This document shows, piece after piece, positions 43,904-61,098 of a stretch of DNA of 64,000 nucleotides. Positions within the stretch are counted from its first letter, which is position 1, and every line of letters starts with the position of its first letter. The notes under the pieces are model-generated. The model saw nothing but the letters and a program-made list of their open reading frames with translations, did not search any database and was not told where the DNA came from. The translations under genes were made by a program, and so were the position numbers. This DNA is from an uncultured Spirochaetales bacterium. Its GTDB lineage: Bacteria > Spirochaetota > Spirochaetia > CAYLLE01. Where the stretch lies: NCBI GenBank assembly GCA_964618265.1, contig CAZUAE010000002.1:71520-135519 (forward strand), in the 5' to 3' direction.

Positions 43904-44644
43904 TCAAGAAAACGAAATGCTATTAATTTTTTCATCAAACATGAGTCCCCAATTCCCCTTTCTGGTCCGTCCTTTTAGAGCTTTATTTAATACGTCCATA
44001 TACTCATTACGTGGTATTTCCTCTGCGCCAAACCTCTCAAGATGAGAAGTATAAACTTGACTGTCTATTAATAAAAAGCCTTCTCTACTTAACAAAGTAA
44101 CTAACATGACAAATCCGGCTTTCGAGGCATTGTCCTGTTCAGTAAACATCGATTCCCCAAAAAAAATATCTCCTAAGGAAACACCGTATAGCCCCCCGGC
44201 AAGGCAGTCACCTGCCCAGATTTCCATAGAATGGGCATATCCCAGCTCATTCAAAATGGAGTAGCCTTTAATCATTTCTTCGGTTATCCAAGTGCCGTTT
44301 TGCCCTGGTCTTTCCGCTATGGCACACCTTGATATAACCTTTCTAAAAGATTTATCGAATGTATAGGTAAAGTGATCTTTCTTTAATATTTTCCTTAGGG
44401 ATCTTTGAATATGAATTTTTTCGGGAAATAGTACATATCTTGGATCAGGACTCCACCAGAGTATTGGTTCTCCCGGAGAATACCATGGGAATATTCCTTG
44501 AGAATATGCCGATAAAAGCATTCCGGGAGAAAGATTACCCCCTACCCCGACGATTCCTTCCGGAGTTGTATTCTCAATGTCAGGAAATTCAAATATCCTC
44601 TTTTCATCCAGATAAGGAAACTCTTCATTCATGAATCTGTCCAT
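43904..44644 (-). CDS. aat: Leucyl/phenylalanyl-tRNA-protein transferase
   Basis: GGNLSPGMLLSAYSQGIFPW, WWSPDPR, TWIT, GGLYGV, FFGESMF, NASK, IDSQ. Confidence 0.97.
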   Translation of the reverse strand: MDRFMNEEFPYLDEKRIFEFPDIENTTPEGIVGVGGNLSPGMLLSAYSQGIFPWYSPGEPILWWSPDPRYVLFPEKIHIQRSLRKILKKDHFTYTFDKSFRKVISRCAIAERPGQNGTWITEEMIKGYSILNELGYAHSMEIWAGDCLAGGLYGVSLGDIFFGESMFTEQDNASKAGFVMLVTLLSREGFLLIDSQVYTSHLERFGAEEIPRNEYMDVLNKALKGRTRKGNWGLMFDEKINSISFS

Positions 44645-44696
44645 TTTATAACGGCTTTTTCTGAATCATTAGTAGTTACGATAATCTTTTGAATTT

Positions 44697-47009
44697 TTAG
44701 ATAGATTCTGTTACCTCTTCTGTATCATTTTCTGACAGGGGGAAGATTACGATATTATCGTTCTGTACATCTGCTTTAGCAGTACCGCCATGCTGTAATT
44801 TTCCAAAAAGTACCGCGTCCACAAAGTACGATTTTATTTTTTCTTCAATTAACCGAGATATATTTCTTGCACCAAATTCAGGGGAATAGCCGTGATCTGC
44901 AATCCATTCTATGCAAGCTTCTGTTGCCTCTAACCGAACGTCTTTCTCAGTAAGCTGCCGGTTAAACTCCAGAAGTTCTTTCTTAACAATTTGTTTTATC
45001 ACTTCTTTGTCTAAATTGTTGAAGACAACTACCTTATCTAATCGATTTCTAAATTCCGGAGAAAAATAACGTTCCACGGCCTCTTCTATTGCTCCCGCAG
45101 AAACAGATCGGTCTCCGAATCCGATCATCGGTTTACCAATTTCCCTTGCACCTGCATTCGAGGTCATAATAATAATAACATTACGAAAATCAGCCTTCTT
45201 ACCCGTATTATCTGTAAGGGTTGCATAATCCATCACTTGAAGCAGTACATTAAAAATATCTTGATGTGCCTTTTCTATTTCGTCCAGCAAGAGTACGGAA
45301 TGAGGGTTTTTCCTTATTGCGTCAGAAAGTAATCCCCCCTCCTCATATCCTACATATCCAGGAGGTGAACCGATAAGCCTACTCACGGTATGTTTTTCCT
45401 GGTATTCACTCATATCAAATCGGTGAAGGGGTACACCTAATGTATTGGAAAGCTGCCTAGCCATTTCAGTCTTGCCGACACCGGTAGGACCGACAAAGAG
45501 AAAATTAGCTACCGGTTTATCTGGATGCCGGAAACCAGCTCTGCTGCGCTTTACCGCTTCTACTACAGGTTCGATTGCCTCCGCTTGTCCAAAAACATTG
45601 CTTCGGAGATCCTGTTCTAAAGAAGCAAGCCTTTCTTTTTCTGAAACTGAAACACTTCGTTCCGGTATATGGGCAATCTTAGAAATAACTTTCTCGATTT
45701 GTTTATCTTCTATGGTTACCGGGGGAGCATCTTCATGACCTTCTCTGAATGTGTTCATCCTCGTGTATGCTCCAGCTTCATCTATAACGTCGATAGCTTT
45801 ATCGGGAAGAAAACGATCATTAATATACTGAGCAGAAAGGTGTACCGCCGTATTGAGAGCACCATCAGTATAGCGTACATTGTGATACTCCTCATATTTT
45901 GGACGCAGCCCCATAAGAATTTCCACTGTTTCATCTTCAGTTGGTTCATTCACATCAATCCGCTGAAAGCGCCTGGACATCGCTCTGTCCTTTTCAAAAT
46001 ACTTTTTGTATTCCTCGTGAGTAGTGGAACCGATACAGCGTATTTTCCCGGACGCAAGTGCAGGTTTCAGCATGTTTGCAGCATCTAGAGAACCTCCGGA
46101 TACAGCGCCAGCCCCGACAACAGTATGAATCTCATCGATGAATAGGATGATCTTTTCCTCTTTAGTTAACTCAGATATTACTTTCTTAATCCGTTCTTCA
46201 AAATCACCGCGAAATCTTGTTCCCGCAAGGATTGAGCCCATATCCAAAGAAAAAATTCTGTAACCCTTTAAAAGATCGGGAACCTTCTCTTCCACAATTC
46301 TATTTGCCAAACCTTCAGTTATAGCTGTTTTACCCACACCGGGATCTCCAACATGGATAGGATTATTTTTTAAACGTCTGCAGAGCACTTGTATTGTTCG
46401 TTCAAGAATATCTTCCCTTCCTATAAGCGGCTCCAAAAGACCTTGATTAGCCAAATCGGTTAGATTTGTAGTGAATTGATCCAAGGCGGACTTTCTTCTT
46501 CTCTTACCACCAGCAGGAATTTCTTCCTCACCATTTTGAAATTCATCTTCTATATCTTCTGAATTATCAGTTTCATCAATACCAACTATATTTAACCCAT
46601 GGGAAATAGTTTCTAATAGATTCAGCCGAGTGACACCAGCCTTCTTAAGGAAATAGGCGCCAAAAGACTTTTCTTCATCAAGTATGGATACCAGAATATC
46701 ACCAATATCCACATCATCTTTTTGTGCGTTTTGGGTATGAAAAAGAGCCCTGTCGATAACATTCTGAAATCCCAACGACCGGAGAGGTTCTCGCTCTGGA
46801 ACTGTGGGTACTTTGTTTTTAAGATGCGCATCCACCTCATTCCTTAATTCATCCGGCTGAACACCACATTCCATTAAGATACTCCTGGGATATTCATAAT
46901 GGAGTGCAGCGTATAATACATGTTCCGGAGTCAAATATTCGTTTTTTCTCTGCTTAGCATCAAGATAAGCAGCATTCAGAATCGTTTCAAGTTCTTCATT
47001 TATCTTCAT
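44697..47009 (-). CDS. clpA: ATP-dependent Clp protease ATP-binding subunit ClpA
   Basis: Two AAA+ modules (GDPGVGKT, FIDEIH; GPTGVGKT, LDEIEKAH), no ClpB middle domain, downstream of clpS. Confidence 0.93.
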   Translation of the reverse strand: MKINEELETILNAAYLDAKQRKNEYLTPEHVLYAALHYEYPRSILMECGVQPDELRNEVDAHLKNKVPTVPEREPLRSLGFQNVIDRALFHTQNAQKDDVDIGDILVSILDEEKSFGAYFLKKAGVTRLNLLETISHGLNIVGIDETDNSEDIEDEFQNGEEEIPAGGKRRRKSALDQFTTNLTDLANQGLLEPLIGREDILERTIQVLCRRLKNNPIHVGDPGVGKTAITEGLANRIVEEKVPDLLKGYRIFSLDMGSILAGTRFRGDFEERIKKVISELTKEEKIILFIDEIHTVVGAGAVSGGSLDAANMLKPALASGKIRCIGSTTHEEYKKYFEKDRAMSRRFQRIDVNEPTEDETVEILMGLRPKYEEYHNVRYTDGALNTAVHLSAQYINDRFLPDKAIDVIDEAGAYTRMNTFREGHEDAPPVTIEDKQIEKVISKIAHIPERSVSVSEKERLASLEQDLRSNVFGQAEAIEPVVEAVKRSRAGFRHPDKPVANFLFVGPTGVGKTEMARQLSNTLGVPLHRFDMSEYQEKHTVSRLIGSPPGYVGYEEGGLLSDAIRKNPHSVLLLDEIEKAHQDIFNVLLQVMDYATLTDNTGKKADFRNVIIIMTSNAGAREIGKPMIGFGDRSVSAGAIEEAVERYFSPEFRNRLDKVVVFNNLDKEVIKQIVKKELLEFNRQLTEKDVRLEATEACIEWIADHGYSPEFGARNISRLIEEKIKSYFVDAVLFGKLQHGGTAKADVQNDNIVIFPLSENDTEEVTESI

Positions 47010-47041
47010 GGGTATCCCTCATTTTTTCTCAAAAATCCTTT

Positions 47042-47359
47042 TTATGCTTTTTCTACAGTACATTTTAAGGGGTATTCAGAATCCCGTGCAGTCTTCATAA
47101 CCTGTTTAGCCTTGGTATTTGCGATATCGTACGTATAGAGACCTACAACACCACGGCCCTTCATATGTACATCCATCATAATGGAAACAGCATCTAACAC
47201 ATTTTTATTAAATATAGATACGAGTATCTCAACAACGAATTCCATAGTTGTATAATGATCATTATGGAGGATAACCTTATACATTTCAGGTTCGCGGATA
47301 TCTTCACGATGTTTCTGTTTTTGTTTCCGAATGGTACCGGAATTAGTATTTCCCGGCAT
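47042..47359 (-). CDS. clpS: ClpS adaptor
   Basis: YKVILHNDHYTTMEFVVEIL, MMDVHMKG, YPLKCTVE. Confidence 0.97.
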   Translation of the reverse strand: MPGNTNSGTIRKQKQKHREDIREPEMYKVILHNDHYTTMEFVVEILVSIFNKNVLDAVSIMMDVHMKGRGVVGLYTYDIANTKAKQVMKTARDSEYPLKCTVEKA

Positions 47360-47522: not shown

Positions 47523-49508
47523 TTAGTTTTCAGTTAAGAAATGGTTTAAAGCATTGCTGCCAGCGGATGGGATCAGTATACTCGAATGATCTTTCATTAC
47601 CGATACTTCCCGGGGGCTGTCTAAGTTTTCAATACCCATCTCCCTGTTTATGTTTCCCACATATTCAAGCTCATCATTTTGCTTTACCGAAAATATGGCT
47701 ATGCTGTCACTTCCACTTCCAGCGATGTAGAGCTTCGCTTTATCTGATGAAAAATCCATACCTTTCGGACGAAACATACCTTCTATTCCGATGTCTCCGT
47801 TTTTATAATTAGAATGAAATGCAACAGCAGAACCGGTGAGGACATAATAGGATATGGAATTATCATAATATCCCGTAACATAGATCGCCGTAGATTTTTG
47901 ATTTATAATTACATCTGCAGCTCCATTCAATCCATCTACTCCATCAATTTCATCTTTGAAAAAAGTACTAAAGGTTAATTCACCAGAATTGGAATTGACA
48001 TTAAAAATCAACAATGAATCAGAAGAAAAGCAGGTCACTGCCGCAATTGATCCATCCGGGGACAAATGTAGGGAGCTAGGTCCTTCCATACATCCATCAG
48101 GTAACTGGTTTGAATCGATACGCTGAATAGGTTCGATAGAGCTGGAATTTAATCTAAATACAGAAATCGAATTCCCATTTTCATTTGCCACATATAGATG
48201 ATTGTCAAAAATAGCTGCTTCTCGCGGACCGTCAAGCCAAGGCTCCTCTTCATTGCTATAAATTATCTTGTATGTTCCATCGAAGTCTAGTATTCCAATC
48301 GAATCAGATTTATACCCTAAGACCACTACTCCGCCAGAATAGATCTCTAAATCACAAGGACCATATAGATTAGGATCTTTTACATACCCCATATAATTCA
48401 GTTTACAAAATTCATTATCATAACAAAAATGAACTACAGAATCTGAATTATATCCAGCGACAAAGACATCGTTACCCCAAAAGCCTACCGATCGAGCTCC
48501 CGACATGCCTATTATTGATGCTTCGCCATTAGTATAATCTCTATAGAAAGCAATTCCCCCAACCCATTGTCCATCCAATACTGAAAACCAAAGACTCGCG
48601 GAACCTTGAGATAATCCCGATACTCCGTCAACCACTGCATCAAGTCTGTTTATTACCATAAGATTTTTAGTGTCAATTTCGATTTTTATTCCTGTACCTA
48701 TTTTGATTCCATTCATATACCAATCGGTATTTTCTAAATCTCCATTGCCGTTAACTTCATACTCGGCGGTAGTGTCACGAAAAAGAATATCTTTTCCTTC
48801 TATGGAAATCTCTGGAGGAGGCAATGTGTCCACGTTCACTGATATTTCCAAGTCCGTCTTAAAAATTGTATGATCATCGGTAAAATCAAAAACAGCTTCC
48901 GTTGTAAAACCATTAATAATCCTTACTGTTTCTGTTGCACCACACTGTTTTTTATTATTGTCGAATAGTTCTATACTTAGTATATAGTATCCGGAATCAA
49001 CAGGATCTATGTAGCATGAAGCGCCTTCAGTGGATACATTTGGCTCACACTGAATAATTGAGTCTTTACCTTCCAACAATATTGAAACCTCTGGATTAGC
49101 CATAGATAATTCCGGCCACATAACGACAACATTCAACGATCCATTTCCATTAACCGGATACAGATTTATATTAATTTCCGATTCCTGAGACTTATATACA
49201 TTTACACTTTTACTTCCGGAAAGTATTAGATCACCGCTCCTATTAAAACTATCAACTTTTAGTTCCCATGGACCGCATAAAATATCATTAACTTTTATTA
49301 CATAGTTTGATGAATCCACCGTGAAGTTTTTTCCTTCCGGACCTTTACCGGATATTATGAAATCCACAGGTTCCATGGAAACCTCCGGCAAAACAGTTCT
49401 ATTGCCGTCAGATGTCAGATTTAGTTTTATAAGTATTTCACCATACTCGTCTGGAATAGAACAGGATATAAGAAACAAGATAGCTGTCAGGTAAATAAAG
49501 ATTTTCAT
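47523..49508 (-). CDS. Lipoprotein with a C-terminal lactonase-type beta-propeller
   Basis: Lipobox FLISC; repeated blades such as DGVDGLNGAADV..IYVTGYYDNSI and LYIAGSGSDSI. Confidence 0.7.
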   Translation of the reverse strand: MKIFIYLTAILFLISCSIPDEYGEILIKLNLTSDGNRTVLPEVSMEPVDFIISGKGPEGKNFTVDSSNYVIKVNDILCGPWELKVDSFNRSGDLILSGSKSVNVYKSQESEININLYPVNGNGSLNVVVMWPELSMANPEVSILLEGKDSIIQCEPNVSTEGASCYIDPVDSGYYILSIELFDNNKKQCGATETVRIINGFTTEAVFDFTDDHTIFKTDLEISVNVDTLPPPEISIEGKDILFRDTTAEYEVNGNGDLENTDWYMNGIKIGTGIKIEIDTKNLMVINRLDAVVDGVSGLSQGSASLWFSVLDGQWVGGIAFYRDYTNGEASIIGMSGARSVGFWGNDVFVAGYNSDSVVHFCYDNEFCKLNYMGYVKDPNLYGPCDLEIYSGGVVVLGYKSDSIGILDFDGTYKIIYSNEEEPWLDGPREAAIFDNHLYVANENGNSISVFRLNSSSIEPIQRIDSNQLPDGCMEGPSSLHLSPDGSIAAVTCFSSDSLLIFNVNSNSGELTFSTFFKDEIDGVDGLNGAADVIINQKSTAIYVTGYYDNSISYYVLTGSAVAFHSNYKNGDIGIEGMFRPKGMDFSSDKAKLYIAGSGSDSIAIFSVKQNDELEYVGNINREMGIENLDSPREVSVMKDHSSILIPSAGSNALNHFLTEN

Positions 49509-49591: not shown

Positions 49592-50404
49592 GTGATGCAC
49601 ATCGATAAAGCTCTTAAGCTCTTAGGCTTATCTTCTAATCCTTCATTACCTAATCTACTTGCTGCATACCGCAAACGTGCAAAAAAATACCACCCAGATC
49701 TTCATCCGAATCAGCAGGAAAAGGCCCACCGTGTCATGGTGCTTTTAAACAATGCCTACAAAATGGTTCTAAAGACATACTGTATAGAGGAACCGTTTCC
49801 GGAAGAAGAAATAGGTATTGAACGGGTACAGGAATCTGAAAAAACGGTATTGACTGAAGAATTTTCGAGGATATTTAATAAGCATTTGCATGTATTATTT
49901 GAAGGCATACTTACGTACTATCAGTATGGTTTGGAAAACGTATACCTTCGTACTGAAGGAACTCGGCGGATAAGGTATAGAAGAGCATTGCAGCAAATGC
50001 ATAAAGGTCTAACGGGCATGCTCAGAACAAAGAACTCAGCAATTTCAAAGGATGATATTGAACTCTATAAAACATTTACCGCTTTCAGTAAAACTTTTTT
50101 TCATATGGCACAATCAAATAAGAAATATGACCCAACTTTAAAAAGAAACGAAGCAAAACCGTATAAACATTACACAAAGGGCAGCAGATTGCTTGATATC
50201 GAATTGAAAAATGAATTTTTCCGTCCCTATTTCAATGACACCAAAGAAACAACGAACACTACTGTGATAAATCATGAGTTAATGACGGTAATTACTAAAT
50301 ATGCTGTGAGCGAATGGGCAGGAGAAGCAGTTATAAAACTGTTTCTCCTGGATCAATATAAACAAGTTCTTCGGCTTTATCGCAAGCATAATGAATATTT
50401 TTAG
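49592..50404 (+). CDS. J-domain (DnaJ-like) protein
   Basis: ALKLLGL..AAYRKRAKKYHPD..LNNAY followed by an unrelated helical C-terminal domain. Confidence 0.85.
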   Translation: MMHIDKALKLLGLSSNPSLPNLLAAYRKRAKKYHPDLHPNQQEKAHRVMVLLNNAYKMVLKTYCIEEPFPEEEIGIERVQESEKTVLTEEFSRIFNKHLHVLFEGILTYYQYGLENVYLRTEGTRRIRYRRALQQMHKGLTGMLRTKNSAISKDDIELYKTFTAFSKTFFHMAQSNKKYDPTLKRNEAKPYKHYTKGSRLLDIELKNEFFRPYFNDTKETTNTTVINHELMTVITKYAVSEWAGEAVIKLFLLDQYKQVLRLYRKHNEYF

Positions 50405-50434: not shown

Positions 50435-53056
50435 CTAACCCCTTTTTACTTTCTTCTTTTCTATATTCATCTGAGCAATAGCTAATTTTGCAATAGGTAT
50501 TCCATAGGGAGAACATGAGACATATTGAAGACCGATATTCCGTACAAAGGGAATGTTTTCTGGTTCTGCACCATGTTCACCACAGATACCCATCACGATG
50601 TCGGGCCTAGTCAATCTTCCCCGTTCCGCTGCAATTTTGATCATTTCTTTAACTTGATTCCCTAATACTTTAAAAGGATTATTTTCAAGGATATCAAACT
50701 CATTGTAATCTGTAAAAAATGAATTAAAATCATCCCTGGATAAACCATTTGTAGTTTGGGTAAGATCATTGGTTCCAAAGCTAAAGAATTCCGCATAACT
50801 TGCAATCTTATCAGCCTGGAGTACTGCAGCAGGAAGCTCGATCATGGTTCCCACCTTGTATGCTATCGGATCAGTATCCGCTTTTTCCCGAATCGCTTTC
50901 TCAATAGTTTCTATGCCCGTTATAGCTTTTCCTTCTATTCTTTTTCCATTCCGTACCGTCTTTAGCTCGTTAGCACTCATTATCAGAGGTATCATTATTT
51001 CAGGCTTACAATTAAATCCTTCTTTTTTCAGCTTATAAGCAGCTTCAAACAGCGCAGTGACCTGCATGTTATATATTTCAGGAAAAGAAATTGCAACACG
51101 TACACCGCGGTGTCCCAGCATAGGATTAAATTCTTTTAGCATATCACAACGGAACCTAATTTCTTTCTCCGTTAGTTTTTCATCAACTCCTTTCATGAAT
51201 TTAATGAAATCATCCATGCTATCTTTCGTATGGGGTAGAAATTCATGAAGCGGAGCATCTAGCAATCGTATAGTTACAGGATAATCACCCATTATTTTAA
51301 ATAGTTGATAGAAATCCGAGACCTGCATCTGTTTCAACTTCGCTAATGCCTTTTCACGGTCCTCTAGCTCTTGAGCAATTATCATGGAACGGAAAATATT
51401 AATTCGCTTTTCATTAAAAAACATATGTTCCGTCCGACATAGACCTATACCGGTTGCCTTAAATTTCTTCGCTAATTCAGCATCTTTTGGTTGATCAGCA
51501 TTGGCATGGACATCAAAATCGCCGATAGCCTTTTGGACAATTTCTAAATAGTCAAGTAAACCGCTGCCCTCGGGAGAAGGTTCGATTAATTCTAATTTTT
51601 CGAAATAAATCGCTGGAGGTTCGTAGTATGGTACGTTCAAAGAAACGTAATCCCCTTCTTTTACCGTTTTTCTGCCAATTTTGATGGAATTCTTCTCAAA
51701 TTTTATATTAGGCAATACCAACGCAACTTTGCCTAGACTTCTCGCTACTACCGGAGCATGCGAGGCATAACCACCTTCACTGGTAAGAACACCCTTGGCA
51801 ACCTCAATGGCCTTTACATCTTCCGCGAAAGTTGAAGGCATAACAAGGATAAATCTAGTATCTTCATTCTTCTGGCTTGCGATTTTATAAGCTTTAAGGA
51901 GAGAATCGGTAGAAAAATATACTTTACCCACTGCTGCTCCGACTGCACCCGCAATACCGCCTTCTGCACTCGAAACATTCCCGGTTTTGCTTAAATCGAG
52001 TACCGGATGTAAAATTTCCGCAAGTCTTCCGGGCTGTATGGCATCTATGCAGTACTCATCATCAATAACACCTTTTTTGTGCAAACCCAACAAAGTTTTT
52101 ATTTCTGCTTGAGCAGACTTGTTTGCTACCTGTATTTGATCGATTATCCATAGTTTTTTATTTTCTACGGTAAATCTTATCTGTCGTATTTCCTTAAAGC
52201 GATCCTCCAAATCTGTTGCTAATTTTTTTAGAACCTTCAAAATCGGTTTTTGAATTTCAGTTATCGATTTGCCTTTCGATTGAGTAGCATCGAACTCGTT
52301 CATGAAATAATTACCACTGATTTCATTATCGCCAGTGACTATATTTCGGGTATAGAATGTCCCGAAAAAACTCTCCTCCCCGTAATTACCGAATGTCATA
52401 GTCTGAATTAGCAAGGCGGCATCTTCGCTTGTGGCGTTACTTTCAAAAAACTTATCGAAGAGGGATATAACATAGGCAAGCTGATAATAGGCATCTTCAA
52501 TAATTTCTGAAGGGTAAATATTTTCTAACTCTTGAATTATTTTATCTACATCACTATTTTTCTTTGCGCTTACGAGCTTTTCCTTTATTCCGGATAGTTT
52601 TTTATTTCTTTCTGTATCTTCTGAAGATTTTAATTCTAGTTCAATAATTTTTGCATACACGTTCTTATATTCATGATATGCGAAATCTTCTCCGACAAAT
52701 GTACCGAAACCTTCCAGGGTTTTCCTGCATAAACCAATGTTGTGAATAGATATACTTTTAATAATGTTCAGCAATGGACTTTCCACTACTTTTATGAGAA
52801 GGGGGTTATCAGGATCATTAAATTTTTTATCGGTTATCTCATCCATCCTGTTTATTGGTAAACCCAATGCCTTTTTTATCTGTTCCGGATCTTTACTCAA
52901 CCCACGAACTGCTTCATTCGGCATCATGAAGCCCGGGAGAATCGGTGCATCTACTTTCGCAAGCTCCATTATTCGCTTACCCCGGATTCCTAGAGACTCC
53001 AAAATTTCAGGATTATCAATAAACTCTGTACTGCTAAATGAATAGTAGCTTTCCAT
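50435..53056 (-). CDS. PPDK-like PEP-utilising protein with a degenerate nucleotide-binding domain
   Basis: Intact His domain (GGYASH433AP) and PEP barrel (GLCRTEHMFF, IRLLDAPLHEF, NPMLGHRG, GTNDLTQ, GICGEHG). N-terminal ATP-grasp motifs are altered (LGIRG, IKVVES, QIRFT). Confidence 0.85.
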   Translation of the reverse strand: MESYYSFSSTEFIDNPEILESLGIRGKRIMELAKVDAPILPGFMMPNEAVRGLSKDPEQIKKALGLPINRMDEITDKKFNDPDNPLLIKVVESPLLNIIKSISIHNIGLCRKTLEGFGTFVGEDFAYHEYKNVYAKIIELELKSSEDTERNKKLSGIKEKLVSAKKNSDVDKIIQELENIYPSEIIEDAYYQLAYVISLFDKFFESNATSEDAALLIQTMTFGNYGEESFFGTFYTRNIVTGDNEISGNYFMNEFDATQSKGKSITEIQKPILKVLKKLATDLEDRFKEIRQIRFTVENKKLWIIDQIQVANKSAQAEIKTLLGLHKKGVIDDEYCIDAIQPGRLAEILHPVLDLSKTGNVSSAEGGIAGAVGAAVGKVYFSTDSLLKAYKIASQKNEDTRFILVMPSTFAEDVKAIEVAKGVLTSEGGYASHAPVVARSLGKVALVLPNIKFEKNSIKIGRKTVKEGDYVSLNVPYYEPPAIYFEKLELIEPSPEGSGLLDYLEIVQKAIGDFDVHANADQPKDAELAKKFKATGIGLCRTEHMFFNEKRINIFRSMIIAQELEDREKALAKLKQMQVSDFYQLFKIMGDYPVTIRLLDAPLHEFLPHTKDSMDDFIKFMKGVDEKLTEKEIRFRCDMLKEFNPMLGHRGVRVAISFPEIYNMQVTALFEAAYKLKKEGFNCKPEIMIPLIMSANELKTVRNGKRIEGKAITGIETIEKAIREKADTDPIAYKVGTMIELPAAVLQADKIASYAEFFSFGTNDLTQTTNGLSRDDFNSFFTDYNEFDILENNPFKVLGNQVKEMIKIAAERGRLTRPDIVMGICGEHGAEPENIPFVRNIGLQYVSCSPYGIPIAKLAIAQMNIEKKKVKRG

Positions 53057-53108
53057 TATTACCCCTATAATTAACCTTTGGGAAGAGTGCTTTCATTTTA
53101 CCTTCCCG

Positions 53109-54050
53109 TTAAAATAAATCTAAAATGACATCATGTCCTTGTTTTAGGAAGGCTTCGAACCTTGGACTTGCCCCTTCAAATAGATATCGCTTAAGTTTTG
53201 AAACATCTTTGATATTTTCTCCCGTTACACTAAACAATATAGGTGTTCCATGTTTAACCTTGCCCCACTTAAAGAGAGCATTAATATCATTAATGCGTTC
53301 ATTTTCATACCATATCAAAACATCAAGTCCTGAATATTTTGATTTATAGCTCTCGATTATTTTTTTCCAAGCCTCGACGTTACCGTTATGAAATAGTTCA
53401 TTAGTTACCACCACAGCGTTTTTAGGCGTAATCCGTTTTTTAACAGGAGATACCTTACGGCCTATTTTCTCTGTCTTTGAAACCGGAGTTTCTTTTCTAA
53501 TAACTGTAGTTTTTTGAGCGCTACGCGGAGGGCCCATATATGCCTTCTTTCCACGCACAATTCCGCCACTAAGAAGTTTAATAAAGTCTTCTACTGCTGA
53601 CTGAACCACATTGTCCTCAATATCTTCCGTCATAGGACCGCCATAAACTACTACGAGTTCGTCTTTAACGAGCGGCAGAACACTTTCCCATTGTTCTCTA
53701 ACCACCGGATTTATTACAACGAGTCCCGTTTGAGGATTATTATAAGTCATGACAAAATCAATATTTGTCCAGTCAGCTATTGTATCAACTATTTTTTTAG
53801 CTTCATCAATAGTTTCTTTCAAGTTATAGGACTTATATGCGTACCCATACTTGTCTACTAACATAGCACTTATTATAGACTTGACTTGAAAACGTTGTAT
53901 CTCTCCATTTTCCAATGACTCGTTCATAAGATCAGATATATTATCACCCCGGGTTATATCTGAAATATAGGATGATACGGTACGAAAGTGCCGCAAAGCG
54001 GCGTTAAAGCCGGCTTTGCGGGATAAAAAATTATATTCATTCTCTATCAT
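53109..54050 (-). CDS. Hypothetical protein with a C-terminal HPr-like domain
   Basis: Residues about 205-295 align by eye with HPr: VVVTNELFH221..., NALFKW, GTPILFSVTGEN. Lies 3 nt after the cfpA stop. Confidence 0.6.
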   Translation of the reverse strand: MIENEYNFLSRKAGFNAALRHFRTVSSYISDITRGDNISDLMNESLENGEIQRFQVKSIISAMLVDKYGYAYKSYNLKETIDEAKKIVDTIADWTNIDFVMTYNNPQTGLVVINPVVREQWESVLPLVKDELVVVYGGPMTEDIEDNVVQSAVEDFIKLLSGGIVRGKKAYMGPPRSAQKTTVIRKETPVSKTEKIGRKVSPVKKRITPKNAVVVTNELFHNGNVEAWKKIIESYKSKYSGLDVLIWYENERINDINALFKWGKVKHGTPILFSVTGENIKDVSKLKRYLFEGASPRFEAFLKQGHDVILDLF

Positions 54051-54053
54051 ATT

Positions 54054-56015
54054 TTATAACTCTTGCAAATCGTCTGAGGATTTTCCTTTTTTCCTGGAGG
54101 GGGTTACATCCGCCTTACCTTCAACATCTGATCCCTCAGATTCATTGAAACTACTTTGGGATGCATCAGGAACCTCGGCACGGATATCATCCTCATAAGC
54201 AAAGCTCTGAGAAATATCTTCCCGTACCGTAGAGCGTCTTCTCTTGAAAGAGGCAAACGCCGCATCCTGAAACCCTTTGGATACACCATGGAGGAATTCA
54301 TTAAGCACATTAGCCATAGAATTCAGAGTGTATTTTTTCCTTTTGATGCTGCAAATATCGATATCCAAAATCAGTCCGGGTTGTACATGATATGGATTGA
54401 TCAGGTAATCGAATTGGCCGAATTGCTGTTCCAGAAAATCTATCCGTTTATCCAGGATCACCCGTACTTGAGGATTCTCATAACCATATATCTGGCGGAT
54501 CCTTTCACGGGATCTCCTTAATATCTTCTTATAGAGATCCTTTTCATACAGATAGGTGTTGTTCAGTTTTTCAACATCCGTTTCCTCTGGTTTGAGAAAG
54601 GACATTTCATTCCACGTTTTTTCTTTATCCTCGTAGAGTTCTTCTTCCTTATTTTGCTTAATCTTCTTTGCAATAGTTCCTTTTACTTTTGCGCTAAGAT
54701 CGTCGAAATCATTAACCTTAAAGTTTGATTTGTTAGAAAGATAGACTGCCTCTACAACTTCGTTTACATGGGTTATTTCATTGTGGAATTGGGCGATTTG
54801 CTTATCGTAAGCTTCCTGTTCTCTTTTCAGCTGGGTGGGATCATAATATTTCATTCTCATCTGATATCTTTCATCAGGCAGACGAACTTCATCGGTATCT
54901 TCATACTCACGGACAACAAGTTCCCGGGCGTTTTTCAGATTCTCGATGTACTGGTATCCCATTTTGCTGGTATCGAGGATTGAAGTAAGGGAATTGATAG
55001 CGGTATTGAATCCTCTGTTTCTAATATTTTCCATATCCACTATTTTTTTCAAATTTTCGCGGATATTGAGAGGATCAAATTCGCTCGGGTCTATCTCTGC
55101 TCTTAAACCCTCTATTTTCTCGATAAGATTCTTTGCCAGGAAAGTATACCGTTTTGATTGTTCGTTATCCGCTTCATCATCAGTATATTCCGGAACTCTT
55201 TTCATCTTTTCGAACATGACTTCGCCATCGGAAAGTTCTTCTTTTCCTTCATCAACGAGTTGATCCTGAAACTCTTCTATTTCCCGGTCGATTAAGTTCA
55301 TTATCGTATTTGCTATTTGATCCTTTATGATGTATTCCACAGTGCTTTGATATTGAAATATAGGACTAATCAACTCAGAATCAAGGATGTTTACAGATAA
55401 TTTCACATCAGTAACAGTTTTAGGTTTTGTTGCATTATCCTTGAAGGCACACTTTACAATTGAATAGGCATTTTCACCTCTAATGAAAGCGCCTACATCG
55501 GCTTTTTGCCGTAATAATGCATTTGTATCATTTTCCAAATCATTAAGACCACGCTGGACATGACCTTGAAGGTGTCCATACATGTTTACGATGGACTTCT
55601 CTATTTCTCCCGTGTTGAATTTATCGGCACCGCCGATTGAGTCCAACATTTCGGAAATCTCTTTCGGTGTGTATCTCGACAGGACTTTTGTTTCTTCTTT
55701 GTCCATGTAGTTCCGGATCTTCTTAACCATCTCGTCTTCTGTGGTTACGATATACCGGTTAAACATGTTCTGATAGTTCTGATTGAAATAGTTATAAAGC
55801 TTCTCCTTGAGACCGCCCATAACATCCAATTTTTCTAATACCTCTTCGGGCAGTTTCACCATGATATCTTTAAGCATCTTATCTGTTTCTTCATTGATAA
55901 GCTGTTTATACTCTTCTTTCTGGCTTCTACCCTCTTGAGCGAGACTGTTTCTCGAACCGACTGCCGAAGGCTTTGTCGGATGGAAAACATTTGGACTTCT
56001 TGGAAGATCTGACAT
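54054..56015 (-). CDS. cfpA: Cytoplasmic filament protein A
   Basis: [52 protein letters not shown] and NPYHVQPG match the spirochaete CfpA family as I recall it. Confidence 0.88.
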
Positions 56016-56178
56016 ACCAAACTCCTTTTAACGATTATTCGTTGTAATTAACACGTTTTCTCAATTAATAAACATATCACATTTTTTTCTTTATGCAAGC
56101 AAATACTTTTAAAGAAAACAACTTTTTTTATTACCTGCATATAATCAACCCGTTTCTTTCGGCAAATACCTCCTCCTC

Positions 56179-58785
56179 CTATAACGATTGAATTTTATTT
56201 TCCACGAGTCTGCGAAATTGAGAACTGTAGGAGTTGTTAGCGAGTTTTCGCAGCTCTTTTTTAATTTCTTCTTCTTGTTGTTCATCCATAGAATTAATTA
56301 TTTCACTATACTGCTTTAAATCTTCAATCGTCCGGCTTTGAATATACCCGGCCGCTACATGCCATATCGTATCACCTCTGCTAATACGGTATTCATCTCC
56401 CTCCGGCATTATAAGAATATCACCAGGATATATCCAGTGTGAATCTTTAACTCCCGGTCTATTTTCAGTTCCTAATTTTCTGTAACCGTTAAGGTCAGAT
56501 ATTGTATTCGTAGTACGAATGATATCACTAATGGTTATCTCAAAGTCATAATTCTCCCCTGATTCACTAGTGTAATCAATTTTTCTCAACTCCTTCATGC
56601 GAGGAGTTTCAAAAAAACTATTCGGTATATCAGCTTCAGGAACTTTCTCGTCTTGGGTTGTATCAGGACTGATATCTGTGTTTTGAGAATCTGCAGAATC
56701 CTTTTCTTCACTTTCAACAGTAACAGAATTGTTATCAGGTTTCTCGGTTGTTTCCTGTTCGGTTTTTTCTACAGTTTCTCTTCCATTTTGAGCTTGACCG
56801 TTAGTACTATCTTGGTCCTGTTCAGTTTGTGAATTTTTTTCTTTACTTGTTTTATCCAACCCGGAATTCGAATTATCTGCCTGTGCTACTATATCGGCAT
56901 CTCCGCCAGAAACATCATCTCCTTGTTTTCCGTTTCCGCGAAAACCAAACCACCACGTCAAAAAACCTGTAAATAATATCAGTGCAACAATAGATGCCAC
57001 TGTAAAAAATTTGACGGGAAATCTTTTTTGTTTTCTCTTTATTGCCCCTGTTTCCTGTGTAGCATGGACCGGCGTGATCTCCTCTTTAGGCTTAAGTTTT
57101 GATGGAGCCTGTGCCTGTTCTTTCTCTTCAGAAAAACGGGACTGAGTCTCCTTTACTGATTCAGAGGTTCCCGGTATCCGCTGTTCCCTAATTTTCGCAG
57201 TGCGGGGCGGTTCCAACTCTCTGCTTAACCTGATAAGCCGCTCCCGTTCGCTGAAATAGAAGCTGTTGTCACCTTCGGGAAGTTCTGAAATATACCGTCT
57301 TGCCTTCTTTGAAGCTTGAATATCGGAAGCGGATAAGCCTTCTATCAAGAGTGTATAAAAACATAATATCTTCCCTTCTTTCTGATATAATTCACCTAAG
57401 AGCGGAATATCCGAACTGCCCAGCCGTTTAGTATTTAATATACTTGAAAGTTCAGAGGATATATTATTTAAAAGTTGGTCGTCTCTTGTTTCTGAAAGAA
57501 GGATAGATGCTGAACAGATATTATTAAATAAAGCTATGAGAACAGGATCCATATTACCGGAAATTTGGCTTAATTTAATTGATACTGCATCATCTCTTGT
57601 TTTATTTCCGGATATAAGATCATTAAAATAATTAATAAATATGTCTACAGTAGGAATATCAGTGGAAGACATAAATTTTTTGAATTTTTTTCCCGATTCA
57701 ATCACAAATTCTTTTATTACTGTATCGGTATTTATTTTGCTTTTAATTGGAACGTAGGGTATCCCAGTGAAAATGTTCAATCGCTCCTTTAAGGATACAG
57801 TTTTATCTTTTGAGTCAATTATGATTAAATCATTATTTTTTCCATTAACATTTTCATCAGAAAGCATAATTGGTCTTGGGAAATCTTCGTTATCTATAAT
57901 AATCTTATTACCTTGTTCATCATCACCTAGTTTATAAGAAAATTTTCCGCTAGTTACGCCTTTTGTATTATTTAGCTGATGGACAGTTACCTGAAACATC
58001 CCCGCTTTAGCGGACGGAAATAACGTCGTAAAATCCTGTATCTTTTTCTTGTTTTTTGAAAACAAAACCGCACGTGAATCGGAATATTTTTTTCTCTTTA
58101 GAAATCTTAGAAGTCCTTCATTTAATCTGGAAGTAACTGCACCTTGCAGCAGATCAGGATCAATACCGTATTTTGCCGCTTCCCGAAAATAATCCACCAG
58201 GACTTTGTCTGATACCAAGTTAGAATTTTTGAATAAAATAGTCGTTTCATCCAATACAATAAAACCTGCCTGATCTATTTTATGAAAGGGCAGCAAAAGC
58301 GGATCTCTTTTTATATGATCCTTCATTATGTCCGCACGCTGGTTAAAATGCTTATCCTGTAATTCCCGCTTCTTTAGATCAAAAATAACTTCATTATTGT
58401 AAGCTATGTTGATATTCTTGTTATCCATGAAATAAACGAGAACCCGGTTTCCATCAGATTTGACGTGTTTATAGTCTTCTATAGCTTTTGGTTTAGTTTT
58501 AAAGATCTGCAGGAATTTTTTAAAGTGTTGAATTATTTCCGAATCACCTATATATCGGTACTCACGTACACTTTCATTTCTCACCTCATAAAGTGGATTG
58601 CCTGTGAGAGAGTCGGGAACTATTACAGTATAAATATCTGATAATACTTGCTTAGGAATTCTGTCGGAAGTTCCAATTCTTAAAAATGGGCGCAGGTCTT
58701 GTTTATCTTTTCCAATATAGATTATATAACATTCGTTATCTATATGAAAAATGCGTCTTTCCGGAAATTTATCAAAATTTTCCAT
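56179..58785 (-). CDS. Bitopic membrane protein: large cytoplasmic domain, single TM helix, acidic/polar linker, periplasmic LysM-like domain
   Basis: TM FFTVASIVALILFTGFLTWWFGF (about 56942-57010) preceded by basic KRKQKR; LysM-like HWIYPGDILIMP..YRISRGDTIWHVA. Confidence 0.7.
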   Translation of the reverse strand: MENFDKFPERRIFHIDNECYIIYIGKDKQDLRPFLRIGTSDRIPKQVLSDIYTVIVPDSLTGNPLYEVRNESVREYRYIGDSEIIQHFKKFLQIFKTKPKAIEDYKHVKSDGNRVLVYFMDNKNINIAYNNEVIFDLKKRELQDKHFNQRADIMKDHIKRDPLLLPFHKIDQAGFIVLDETTILFKNSNLVSDKVLVDYFREAAKYGIDPDLLQGAVTSRLNEGLLRFLKRKKYSDSRAVLFSKNKKKIQDFTTLFPSAKAGMFQVTVHQLNNTKGVTSGKFSYKLGDDEQGNKIIIDNEDFPRPIMLSDENVNGKNNDLIIIDSKDKTVSLKERLNIFTGIPYVPIKSKINTDTVIKEFVIESGKKFKKFMSSTDIPTVDIFINYFNDLISGNKTRDDAVSIKLSQISGNMDPVLIALFNNICSASILLSETRDDQLLNNISSELSSILNTKRLGSSDIPLLGELYQKEGKILCFYTLLIEGLSASDIQASKKARRYISELPEGDNSFYFSERERLIRLSRELEPPRTAKIREQRIPGTSESVKETQSRFSEEKEQAQAPSKLKPKEEITPVHATQETGAIKRKQKRFPVKFFTVASIVALILFTGFLTWWFGFRGNGKQGDDVSGGDADIVAQADNSNSGLDKTSKEKNSQTEQDQDSTNGQAQNGRETVEKTEQETTEKPDNNSVTVESEEKDSADSQNTDISPDTTQDEKVPEADIPNSFFETPRMKELRKIDYTSESGENYDFEITISDIIRTTNTISDLNGYRKLGTENRPGVKDSHWIYPGDILIMPEGDEYRISRGDTIWHVAAGYIQSRTIEDLKQYSEIINSMDEQQEEEIKKELRKLANNSYSSQFRRLVENKIQSL

Positions 58786-59306: not shown

Positions 59307-60479
59307 TTGCTGTATACTTTTCCTATGATTATCAATGAAAAAGCAAAGACAAAGATTATACCTATTGCCAGCGGAAAAGGCGGTGTAGGAAAATCCTTCA
59401 TCTCTTCTAACCTTGCAATAAGCCTTGCGAAAAGCGGAAAAAAGACTACCCTGATAGATCTGGACTTGGGCGGCTCCAACCTGCATACATATCTCGGAAT
59501 AAAGAATACCAATCCGGGGATAGGTAATTTCCTTTCAAATAAAAAGATTTCCTTTGATGATATTATTTTTGAAACTGAATTTCCAAACTTGACATTCATA
59601 CCCGGGGATGTATTAGTTACCGGCATGGCCAACATAAGCGGAAATCAAAAGAACCGTATCATCAGCGGTATTGAAAAACTGGAAGGCGATTATGTTATAA
59701 TGGATCTTGCCTCAGGCAGTCAGTTCGATATTGTTGATTTCTTTTTAGTTTCTAATTCAGGATTTCTTGTTGTTAATCCCCATGCTCCCTCCCTTCTTAA
59801 TACATATTCATTTTTAAAAACCACAGTCTTTAGATTTATTCAGAGAGCTTTTAACAATAACAAGAAGGTTTCATCCTATATGACTTCCTTGTTGAAGGAA
59901 AAACAACCTGGAGAAATTCCTCCTTTTTCGGAAATTCAAAAGGAAATTTCCAAACGGAGCGCCCCTGTGGGCAGAAATGTAAAAAAAAGTATTGAGCTGC
60001 TTAAACTCAAGATAATAATTAACATGGCGGATCATCCTGAAGATATAGCCTTCGTAATAAAACTCAGAGATCTTATACAAAAATTTCTTTCCATAGATAC
60101 AGAATGCCTTGGTCTAATATACAGAGATAAAGCTGTTCCAAGGTCTTTAGATGAGCTATCCGTCTTTTATACTACCTATCCATCAAGTTTAGCTGCTCAA
60201 GAGATAGAGAGAATAAGTCAGAAAATTTTACAATCAGAGGATTTTCCTAATATGCCGCTTGATTTAGAATATTATAAAGATTCTTTCGAATTGGCAGAAA
60301 TTGAAGCCGGCAATGATTACGAGATCCTAAAAAAAAATACTTCTGTATCAAATAAGGACGAAATTGACACCCGTGAACTCATTGATATGATTACATCCCA
60401 AAAGAAACAAATTAATGAGTTAAAGAGTACGGTTCGGAGACTGACGATGAGAAATGCTCCGCGGAGGGACCGACTGTAG
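59307..60479 (+). CDS. MinD/FlhG-family P-loop ATPase (paralog 2) with a C-terminal coiled coil; start probably 59325
   Basis: ASGKGGVGKS, DLDLGGSNLH, DYVIMDLASG; C-terminal tail ELIDMITSQKKQINELKSTVRRL. Confidence 0.85.
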   Translation: MLYTFPMIINEKAKTKIIPIASGKGGVGKSFISSNLAISLAKSGKKTTLIDLDLGGSNLHTYLGIKNTNPGIGNFLSNKKISFDDIIFETEFPNLTFIPGDVLVTGMANISGNQKNRIISGIEKLEGDYVIMDLASGSQFDIVDFFLVSNSGFLVVNPHAPSLLNTYSFLKTTVFRFIQRAFNNNKKVSSYMTSLLKEKQPGEIPPFSEIQKEISKRSAPVGRNVKKSIELLKLKIIINMADHPEDIAFVIKLRDLIQKFLSIDTECLGLIYRDKAVPRSLDELSVFYTTYPSSLAAQEIERISQKILQSEDFPNMPLDLEYYKDSFELAEIEAGNDYEILKKNTSVSNKDEIDTRELIDMITSQKKQINELKSTVRRLTMRNAPRRDRL

Positions 60480-60505: not shown

Positions 60506-61057
60506 TTAAACTATCTTTTTTGTCATAAAATCTCGGAATATTTCCCCAATTTCTTTTGATATTTTAACGGCATCAGAACGGGGTACATTAGCATCTTTCC
60601 ACATAGTATCCTGGAAGAACTTTACCATTATCCGATCCAATTGGGGATCTGGGAAAAAGATATAAGAATAATTATTTCCCATTGTCTTAAGTATTGTAAA
60701 GGACCCATAGCTAATTATAGGTTCTTTTCCTACCATTACCTTATCCTGGCGTTTTGTTGTAAATATTTCCAACTCGTTAAAACGGTAAGGAATTTTGTGA
60801 ATATCATCACGATAAGAGGGCTCGGTGTGTTTTTTATCATAATTCATCGGTTCGACTAAAATATACAATTTTTTACCGTCAGCCTGAAAGGTCAATCCAT
60901 CTTCCGATGCATGAATAGATTTTACATTATTGTAAGAGGTTATCTCATATTTAGTATATGCTGATGTTTCCAAAAAAAACGAGCTTACAATAAATCCCCC
61001 TTCCCGGGGTAATTCATTTTTGTTATACGCACTAAAAAGCTCTTTTACGGTAGACAC
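60506..61057 (-). CDS. Hypothetical protein
   Basis: SD GGAGG 5 nt before the GTG at 61057 (MSTVKELF...), so the start is revised from the ORF track. Confidence 0.65.
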   Translation of the reverse strand: MSTVKELFSAYNKNELPREGGFIVSSFFLETSAYTKYEITSYNNVKSIHASEDGLTFQADGKKLYILVEPMNYDKKHTEPSYRDDIHKIPYRFNELEIFTTKRQDKVMVGKEPIISYGSFTILKTMGNNYSYIFFPDPQLDRIMVKFFQDTMWKDANVPRSDAVKISKEIGEIFRDFMTKKIV

Positions 61058-61098
61058 AATTTCCTCCAATATAAAATTAAGGCTGGACTCTACCATGA

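Follow-up and report, generated by a model that had tools for sequence, protein, structure and literature searches.

The protein encoded two genes downstream of cfpA in spirochaetes resembles pyruvate, phosphate dikinase (PPDK), but our analysis indicates with high confidence that it is no canonical PPDK and makes up a functional module together with the product of the intervening gene, a protein of the TP_0747 family. We studied this gene pair in a 64,000-nucleotide (nt) stretch of DNA from an uncultured Spirochaetales bacterium (contig CAZUAE010000002.1, positions 71,520 to 135,519; hereafter the window), where the PPDK-like protein has 873 amino acids (aa) and its partner, which we call p313, has 313. 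Whether the two proteins are also a PPDK-derived analogue of Enzyme I and HPr, the pair of the phosphotransferase system (PTS) that is driven by phosphoenolpyruvate (PEP), appears to us evenly balanced; this proposal, in which a phosphoryl group would pass from His433 of the PPDK-like protein to His221 of p313, draws on fold, gene adjacency and correlated loss. That phosphorylation of p313 controls the assembly, bundling or anchoring of the CfpA ribbon is a tentative suggestion, possible if somewhat doubtful; the contacts between the proteins and any effect on CfpA are what we infer from the evidence below.

We propose that the locus is a cfpA operon, the last two genes of which would form a conserved module. 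All genes concerned lie on the reverse strand. cfpA (54054..56015; 653 aa, NCBIfam NF040882) is followed by the p313 gene (53109..54050; Pfam PF27497, TP_0747_N) and by the PPDK-like gene (50435..53056), whose product profiles and alignments place in the TP0746/TDE0844 family, with an inactivated nucleotide site. Upstream of cfpA, a fourth gene encodes an 868-aa protein with a transmembrane helix and a LysM-like segment. The four genes are co-directional and separated by gaps of 163, 3 and 52 nt. An earlier note on this DNA had given their identities, coordinates and the two short spacings correctly, as judged by the open reading frame (ORF) list and by the gaps when recomputed. A terminator and promoter scan found sites that were no commoner than in shuffled sequence and no terminator between the four genes, and it is uninformative beyond its compatibility with an operon.

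In a synteny scan of 185,579 species genomes, at least 575 stretches encoded a relative, and the best 80 loci, all of them spirochaetal, were examined. In all 80, the PPDK-like gene came next after the p313 gene (median gap 48 nt), and cfpA lay directly upstream of the p313 gene, in the same order and orientation, in all 77 loci whose contig reached that far (median gap 1.5 nt). The Treponema phagedenis locus encodes CfpA, p313 and a 912-aa PPDK-like protein in order, the last dead at the same ATP-grasp residues and intact at the His/PEP site. In Treponema denticola, TDE0842-0844 are arranged as cfpA, a hypothetical gene and 'ppdK', and the same co-incubations with other oral species repressed all three (PMC3914990). 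The Treponema gene order that the earlier note had mentioned is present in both species. The co-occurrence of the four genes, which it had marked for checking, held for CfpA, p313 and the PPDK-like protein (77/77 loci, and Treponema too) but not for the LysM-like gene, which was found in 59 of the 80 loci and was missing in the Treponema loci examined.

The residues of the PPDK-like protein were compared with those of Clostridium symbiosum PPDK and of 66 orthologues from related loci. Window protein and C. symbiosum enzyme are collinear over residues 17-866 (36% identity), and the PPDK equivalog profile TIGR01828 aligned over the full length, with a score (652.7 bits) under its cut-off of 843.45. 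Residues 1-345 (52022..53056, reverse strand) form a remnant ATP-grasp domain in which the catalytic residues of PPDK are replaced (R92→V, R135→N, D321→Q, E323→R and R337→Q relative to C. symbiosum) and the G101 loop and the QGEDVVAG segment are lost. These seven features were replaced in 67 of 67 orthologues, several positions being variable and the E323 position holding Arg or Lys in most. The only survivors of the nucleotide site are K22 (as Arg) and Q335, and Thr453, which is both regulatory and catalytic in PPDK, is Ala in every orthologue. Pfam profile PPDK_N (PF01326) matched neither the window protein nor any of 120 database homologues; all 120 matched PF00391 and PF02896 only, and their newer NCBI name is 'putative PEP-binding protein'.

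The other half of the protein is kept. Pfam recognized both the swivelling phospho-histidine domain (PEP-utilizers, PF00391, E=6.7×10−11; residues 376-480, 51617..51931, reverse strand) and the PEP/pyruvate-binding TIM barrel (PEP-utilizers_C, PF02896, E=6.4×10−70; residues 511-873, 50438..51526, reverse strand), which includes the catalytic Cys825. His433 (codon at 51758-51760, reverse strand, translation checked) corresponds to His455 of C. symbiosum, and R561, R617, E745, N768, D769 and C831 are likewise retained. Both the phospho-His motif GGYASHAPVVA around His433 and the equivalents of these six residues were invariant in 67 of 67 orthologues. A dead nucleotide site beside an intact His/PEP site leaves only the half-reaction from PEP/pyruvate to His as plausible, and we take the PPDK-like protein to be plausibly limited to it. 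The remnant ATP-grasp domain appears not to be decaying, because it retains invariant polar residues of its own (R25, K89, H105, E129, D212, S213, D256, R291, E298, D306 and Q307). The earlier note had seen in the window protein a PEP barrel and phospho-His that were kept and ATP-grasp catalytic residues that were mostly lost, and had denied that the gene is a metabolic ppdK; the first observation extends to 67 of 67 orthologues, and the second is borne out by a nucleotide site that is dead throughout the family, a strictly conserved PEP/His site and the TIGR01828 score below cut-off.

p313 comprises an N-terminal alpha/beta domain (about residues 11-180), a disordered linker rich in Pro, Ala and Lys (181-208) and a C-terminal domain (209-313; 53112..53426, reverse strand; motif VTNELFHNGNVEAWK) that AlphaFold2, Foldseek and hhalign suggest to be HPr-like. 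Precomputed PF27497 matches were present in the window protein and in all listed homologues, and the name of this profile, TP_0747_N, identifies the family as that of Treponema pallidum TP0747. The family is narrow, with 2445 homologues and, out of 1.84 billion representatives, 207 clusters at 50% identity, and members with a named source were all from spirochaetes or unclassified metagenome-assembled genomes (MAGs), barring evident mislabels. Treponeme-like members of one cluster (P0398, MCM1322382.1 and others) carry the name Bacteroides sp. or Prevotella sp. in NCBI MAG records and are probably mis-binned spirochaete contigs.

Two template-free AlphaFold2 models were made, one of full-length p313 (predicted local distance difference test (pLDDT) 77.8) and one of the C-terminal domain only (pLDDT 82.5, pTM 0.79). 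In both, the C-terminal topology is beta-alpha-beta-beta-alpha-beta-alpha, plus an extra helix. With the full-length model, the best Foldseek match in the PDB was HPr 7x7h_B (template-modelling score (TM) 0.74 when normalised to HPr, probability 1.0, E=0.025), and nearly all matches with a meaningful TM were HPr; Crh chains were also among the hits. The top 24 matches of the domain-only model were all HPr. An hhalign comparison of 91 diverse p313 C-terminal domains with HPr gave P=4.4×10−4 over 77 columns (probability 34%) and paired His221 with HPr His15, NALF with KSLF in the Ser46 region of HPr, and GTPILFSVTGEN with GTVVTISAEGED. Of about 105 representative clusters at 50% identity, 98 had His221 (codon at 53388-53390, reverse strand, translation checked), the candidate phospho-acceptor in the beta1-alphaA loop. 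His267 was rejected as the acceptor, being invariant among close relatives and variable across the p313 family. For the N-terminal domain, Foldseek returned no convincing structural relative (folds of the cyclic-nucleotide-binding and PrfA-like type reached a probability of ~0.1).

Loci that depart from the common arrangement are informative about which parts belong together. In Treponema primitia ZAS-2, the p313 gene is immediately followed by a gene for a 585-aa partner made up of linker, His domain and PEP barrel, with all catalytic residues intact, and cfpA is not adjacent to this pair. The partner at another locus (L091) likewise has no N-terminal ATP-grasp domain. The remnant is therefore dispensable, and the nucleotide half-reaction is impossible in these two cases. 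At locus L082, the His221 motif of p313 is lost and the 873-aa partner shows His→Tyr, R561K, altered N768/D769 and C831L. At locus L081, where cfpA is again not adjacent, p313 has His→Ser and the partner a degenerate PEP site (R561K, D620H, N768S/D769N). These two degenerations are independent, as judged by the 33% identity between the partner proteins. Fast evolution as their cause was rejected: the most divergent member of the family (L090, 25% identity to the window protein) has kept His221 and every catalytic residue of the partner. Both sites were intact in about 70 loci and both degenerate in two, that is, in two events and with a count uncorrected for phylogeny. This pattern supports a functional coupling of p313 and its partner, and the occurrence of the pair without adjacent cfpA in two genomes (T. 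primitia and L081) marks the p313/PPDK-like pair as the core unit.

We propose that the 873-aa protein descended from PPDK, lost the active site for adenosine monophosphate (AMP) and pyrophosphate (PPi) in the ATP-grasp domain, and kept the PEP/pyruvate barrel and His433. The remaining partial reaction would be PEP + His433 → pyruvate + His433~P. Acting like Enzyme I, the protein would pass the phosphoryl group from PEP via His433 to His221 of the HPr-like domain, and the phosphorylation state of p313 would report the PEP/pyruvate ratio. The N-terminal domain of p313 may link this state to some target, for which the CfpA filament ribbon is the most plausible candidate; in the genome of the window, the transmembrane/LysM-like protein may fasten the ribbon to the envelope.

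A number of findings weigh against this scheme. On the donor side, the PPDK-like protein has no helical HPr-binding subdomain of the Enzyme I type, and Enzyme I profiles match residues 631-868 only, that is, the barrel (TIGR01417: 122.7 bits; cut-off 341.7). The L081 partner has kept its donor His although p313 has lost His221 there, and the degenerate pairs of L081 and L082 are still encoded by full-length ORFs, which speaks for a further role that is not catalytic. The gene for the putative envelope tether is absent from the T. phagedenis locus and from the Treponema loci examined. On the acceptor side, the connection of p313 to HPr appears to be one of fold, of moderate strength, and not of significant sequence similarity. 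The Foldseek E-values against HPr were weak (0.018-0.3), and TM fell to 0.45-0.60 with the domain-only model. A Pfam scan of the C-terminal domain up to E=10 did not match HPr (PF00381); a hidden Markov model of 15 such domains found no HPr among the PDB sequences, only an insignificant folliculin match (E=0.04); and a first hhalign run with a shallow profile had given HPr a probability of 3.5%.

The candidate site itself adds to these points. In the motif F-H221-N-G-N, Gly223 occupies the column of HPr Arg17, and the conserved Arg17 is absent. In the models, His221 lies in the same loop as His15 of HPr but 2-3 residues ahead of the long helix, which would weaken an exact equivalence with His15, and nowhere is the domain model less confident than in this loop (pLDDT ~65). 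The hhalign pairing of His221 with His15 had low posterior confidence in that segment, and His221 is one of many near-invariant residues in its motif. The HPr-like fold that the earlier note had claimed is thus supported by two models with HPr as the top match, whereas its placement of a His at the His15 position depends on the hhalign pairing, in a low-confidence loop and without Arg17. Mean column identity in the HPr-like domain was 84%, compared with ~64% for whole p313, among close relatives (40% with Treponemataceae included). Such conservation would seem to exceed the needs of a simple phosphocarrier, and suggests that the domain binds several partners or is built into a polymer.

Some of these observations would fit a protein that has kept autophosphorylation from PEP and delivers the phosphoryl group elsewhere, with p313 as an adaptor whose HPr-like domain serves for binding. 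The acceptor might be a small molecule or a protein in the remodelled N-terminal domain, CfpA, or water, in which case the enzyme would be a PEP-to-pyruvate converter or sensor. The lack of Arg17 in p313 would then be expected, as would the invariant residues of the N-terminal domain (R25, K89, H105, D256, R291, E298, D306 and Q307) and a p313 C-terminal domain that exceeds the rest in conservation by far, as a binding surface might. Crh and similar HPr-fold proteins function without His15 and offer a precedent. However, T. primitia and L091 have kept the pair and do without the N-terminal domain, the His221 motif and the catalytic site of the partner were lost together in two independent lineages, and the acceptor His is found in 98 of ~105 clusters. 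We consider this explanation unlikely, although it deserves to be taken seriously.

Both proteins could also be mainly structural parts of the filament ribbon, corresponding to the bridging or anchoring densities of treponeme tomograms, with the PEP site at most an allosteric ligand site. Bridging and anchoring components of treponeme cytoplasmic filaments were reportedly described by Izard et al. in 2004, as cited in PMC3398590. The linkage with cfpA in 77 of 77 loci speaks for such a role, and so do the full-length ORFs of L081 and L082 despite their lost catalytic residues. Against it, all catalytic residues, including the proton-donor Cys and the phospho-His motif, are kept down to 25% identity (L090), which ligand binding alone hardly explains, and the pair also occurs without adjacent cfpA in T. 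primitia and L081. A purely structural function is therefore improbable in our view.

That the gene is an ordinary metabolic PPDK with a divergent nucleotide domain and a chance neighbour of cfpA, as current annotation and the metabolic model of T. pallidum have it (PMC10013896, PMC8525777), would agree with the full-length TIGR01828 alignment at 653 bits, the many database entries named pyruvate, phosphate dikinase, the conserved K22→R and Q335, and the invariant K89 and D306, which could in principle replace R92 and E323, but it is very improbable in view of a score below the equivalog cut-off, the replacement of R92, the G101 loop, R135, QGEDVVAG, D321, E323 and R337 (several of them variable), the constant Ala at Thr453, and an N-terminal domain unmatched by PF01326 in 120 of 120 homologues and missing outright in T. 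primitia and L091.

The proposed phosphotransfer pair shares with the PTS proteins Enzyme I and HPr (ptsI/ptsH, EI-Ntr/NPr) a PEP TIM barrel with a catalytic Cys, a swivelling phospho-His domain and, encoded by the adjacent gene, a partner with an HPr-fold domain and a conserved His in the beta1-alphaA loop. The T. primitia donor, with its 585 aa, has the size of Enzyme I, and a CfpA-linked pair would be regulatory, as in PTS-Ntr, and not devoted to sugar transport. Unlike Enzyme I, however, the donor is of PPDK descent (653 bits with TIGR01828 compared with 123 bits with TIGR01417, the latter in the barrel only), has no helical HPr-binding subdomain and in most cases still bears an ATP-grasp domain that is dead. 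The acceptor domain of p313 differs from HPr by the absence of the Pfam HPr signature and of Arg17 and by its fusion behind a 180-residue N-terminal domain and a linker, and the genetic linkage of the module is to a cytoskeletal gene, not to EII genes.

With PPDK (C. symbiosum 1DIK/1KBL, TIGR01828) the window protein has in common the three-domain architecture and the identity of His455 and the PEP-site residues. It differs in the lost nucleotide/phosphate-site residues and Gly-rich loop, in Ala for T453, in the score below cut-off and in a gene that is always paired with a TP_0747-family gene. In PEP synthase, rifampin phosphotransferase and DhaM/DhaK, a phospho-His domain carries the phosphoryl group back and forth between the donor site and an acceptor site that evolution has exchanged. 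The donor in PEP synthase and rifampin phosphotransferase is a working ATP-grasp domain and DhaM has genuine PTS domains, whereas here PEP would be the donor and a separate HPr-like domain the acceptor. T. pallidum TP0746-TP0748 and T. denticola TDE0842-TDE0844 resemble the window in the order of cfpA, hypothetical gene and 'ppdK', but the Treponema loci examined lack the upstream transmembrane/LysM-like gene.

In the literature search, no paper was found in which TP0747/TDE0843 is called HPr-like or TP0746/TDE0844 something other than a PPDK. As the earlier note had surmised, the locus is known, its genes appearing in the Treponema literature, while the phosphorelay reading appears to be new. 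T. phagedenis is close to T. pallidum. The gene order, the Pfam family name and the T. phagedenis orthologue indicate that TP0746 probably belongs to the p313-paired, PPDK-derived family. In T. pallidum papers, TP0746 is the glycolytic Ppdk, which makes pyruvate and ATP from PEP, AMP and PPi (PMC10013896; also as Ppdk in PMC8525777). TP0747/TDE0843 counts as hypothetical in the literature. If TP0746 is the same as its T. phagedenis orthologue, the last glycolytic step and the ATP yield of T. pallidum need re-examination, and the protein would not be the ATP-yielding Ppdk of current metabolic maps.

If the proposed transfer occurs, the pair would constitute a PEP:protein phosphotransferase that evolved independently, with PPDK and not Enzyme I as its starting material. 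If p313 in turn controls the CfpA ribbon, central-carbon status would be wired directly to the bacterial cytoskeleton of division and nucleoid organisation, a rare genetic link between a metabolic signal and a filament. The uncharacterised TP0747/TDE0843 family gains a specific hypothesis that is cheap to test. Interruption of cfpA in T. denticola caused filamentation, chromosome condensation and loss of virulence (PMC3398590), phenotypes that may include polar effects on the two downstream genes.

CfpA of the window matched NCBIfam NF040882 with 1095.8 bits (cut-off 500) over residues 3-606, the profile having 605 positions, and was 65-76% identical to CfpA of related loci. Pfam PF27473 (CfpA_C) was present in the CfpA products of neighbouring loci. 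The 868-aa protein encoded upstream (56179..58785, reverse strand, from the ORF list) as a whole has no Pfam family. It consists of a conserved N-terminal domain, one transmembrane helix (residues 591-615, VKFFTVASIVALILFTGFLTWWFGF; 56941..57015, reverse strand, translation checked; Kyte-Doolittle maximum 2.17 in a 19-residue window), an acidic low-complexity spacer and a LysM-like C-terminus (residues 799-829, YRISRGDTIWHVAAGY...; 56299..56391, reverse strand). The LysM match (PF01476) was borderline, with 20.6 bits and a gathering cut-off of 20.9 (E=4×10−4) when the C-terminal 134 residues were scanned alone; the whole protein gave no LysM match in Pfam. The sequence KRKQKR just before the helix implies a cytoplasmic N-terminus. 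Because of the single strong transmembrane helix and the borderline LysM match, we read the protein as probably bitopic, with a large cytoplasmic domain and possibly a peptidoglycan-binding tail, which makes it a candidate membrane/peptidoglycan anchor. The 'LysM anchor' of the earlier note is thus clear in its transmembrane helix and falls short of the cut-off in its LysM part.

Relatives of the 868-aa protein encoded upstream of cfpA in the 59 loci mentioned above had 25-38% identity to it. Like RodZ-type anchors, the protein would be bitopic with a cytoplasmic N-terminal domain, one transmembrane helix and a periplasmic C-terminus, next to a cytoskeletal gene, and NCBIfam RodZ matched weakly across helix and spacer (E=0.002). 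Unlike RodZ, it has no helix-turn-helix, scored 17.7 bits with a RodZ cut-off of 208, and has a LysM-like C-terminus.

Two apparent fusions were also considered and rejected. P0365 (KAK3596126.1, 841 aa, Potamilus streckersoni) joins CfpA to the N-terminal domain of the TP_0747 family and would have been a Rosetta-stone fusion of CfpA and p313, but the record is a gene model from a eukaryotic assembly, that of a freshwater mussel, with evident spirochaete contamination or a symbiont as its source. P0351 was discarded as an apparent chimera with unrelated DNA ligase-like sequence. In T. primitia ZAS-2, a bactofilin gene (L088, 14503-14877) lies 1.7 kilobases downstream of the pair, with two genes between.

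Several further genes were recorded around the cluster of the window. Convergent with the PPDK-like gene, a gene at 49592-50404 (forward strand) encodes a 270-aa J-domain protein (Pfam DnaJ, E=3×10−8) without DnaJ C-terminal domains. In 51 of the 80 loci a homologue, read from the other strand, comes shortly after the PPDK-like gene, and the J-domain gene may be part of the same functional neighbourhood. Divergent from the transmembrane/LysM-like gene is a gene for a 390-aa P-loop ATPase of the ParA/MinD type (59307-60479, forward strand). Of the 80 loci, 49 have a ParA/MinD-like ATPase as a conserved neighbour, on one side of the cluster or the other, which fits a theme of division or segregation around cfpA. 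The adjoining gene (60506-61096, reverse strand) encodes a 196-aa protein without a Pfam family that is present near the cluster in 54 of 80 loci (44-64% identity). On the other side, the reverse strand carries an N-degron pathway cluster (43904-47359), in which a Leu/Phe-tRNA protein transferase (43904-44644; Pfam E=1×10−71) is accompanied by a ClpA-like AAA+ unfoldase (44697-47009) and a ClpS-like 105-aa protein (47042-47359), the latter two labelled by reading the sequence only. Between the ClpS-like and J-domain genes lies the gene for a 661-aa protein (47523-49508, reverse strand) with a lipoprotein-like N-terminal signal (LISCS) and a lactonase-type seven-bladed beta-propeller (Pfam E=3×10−15).

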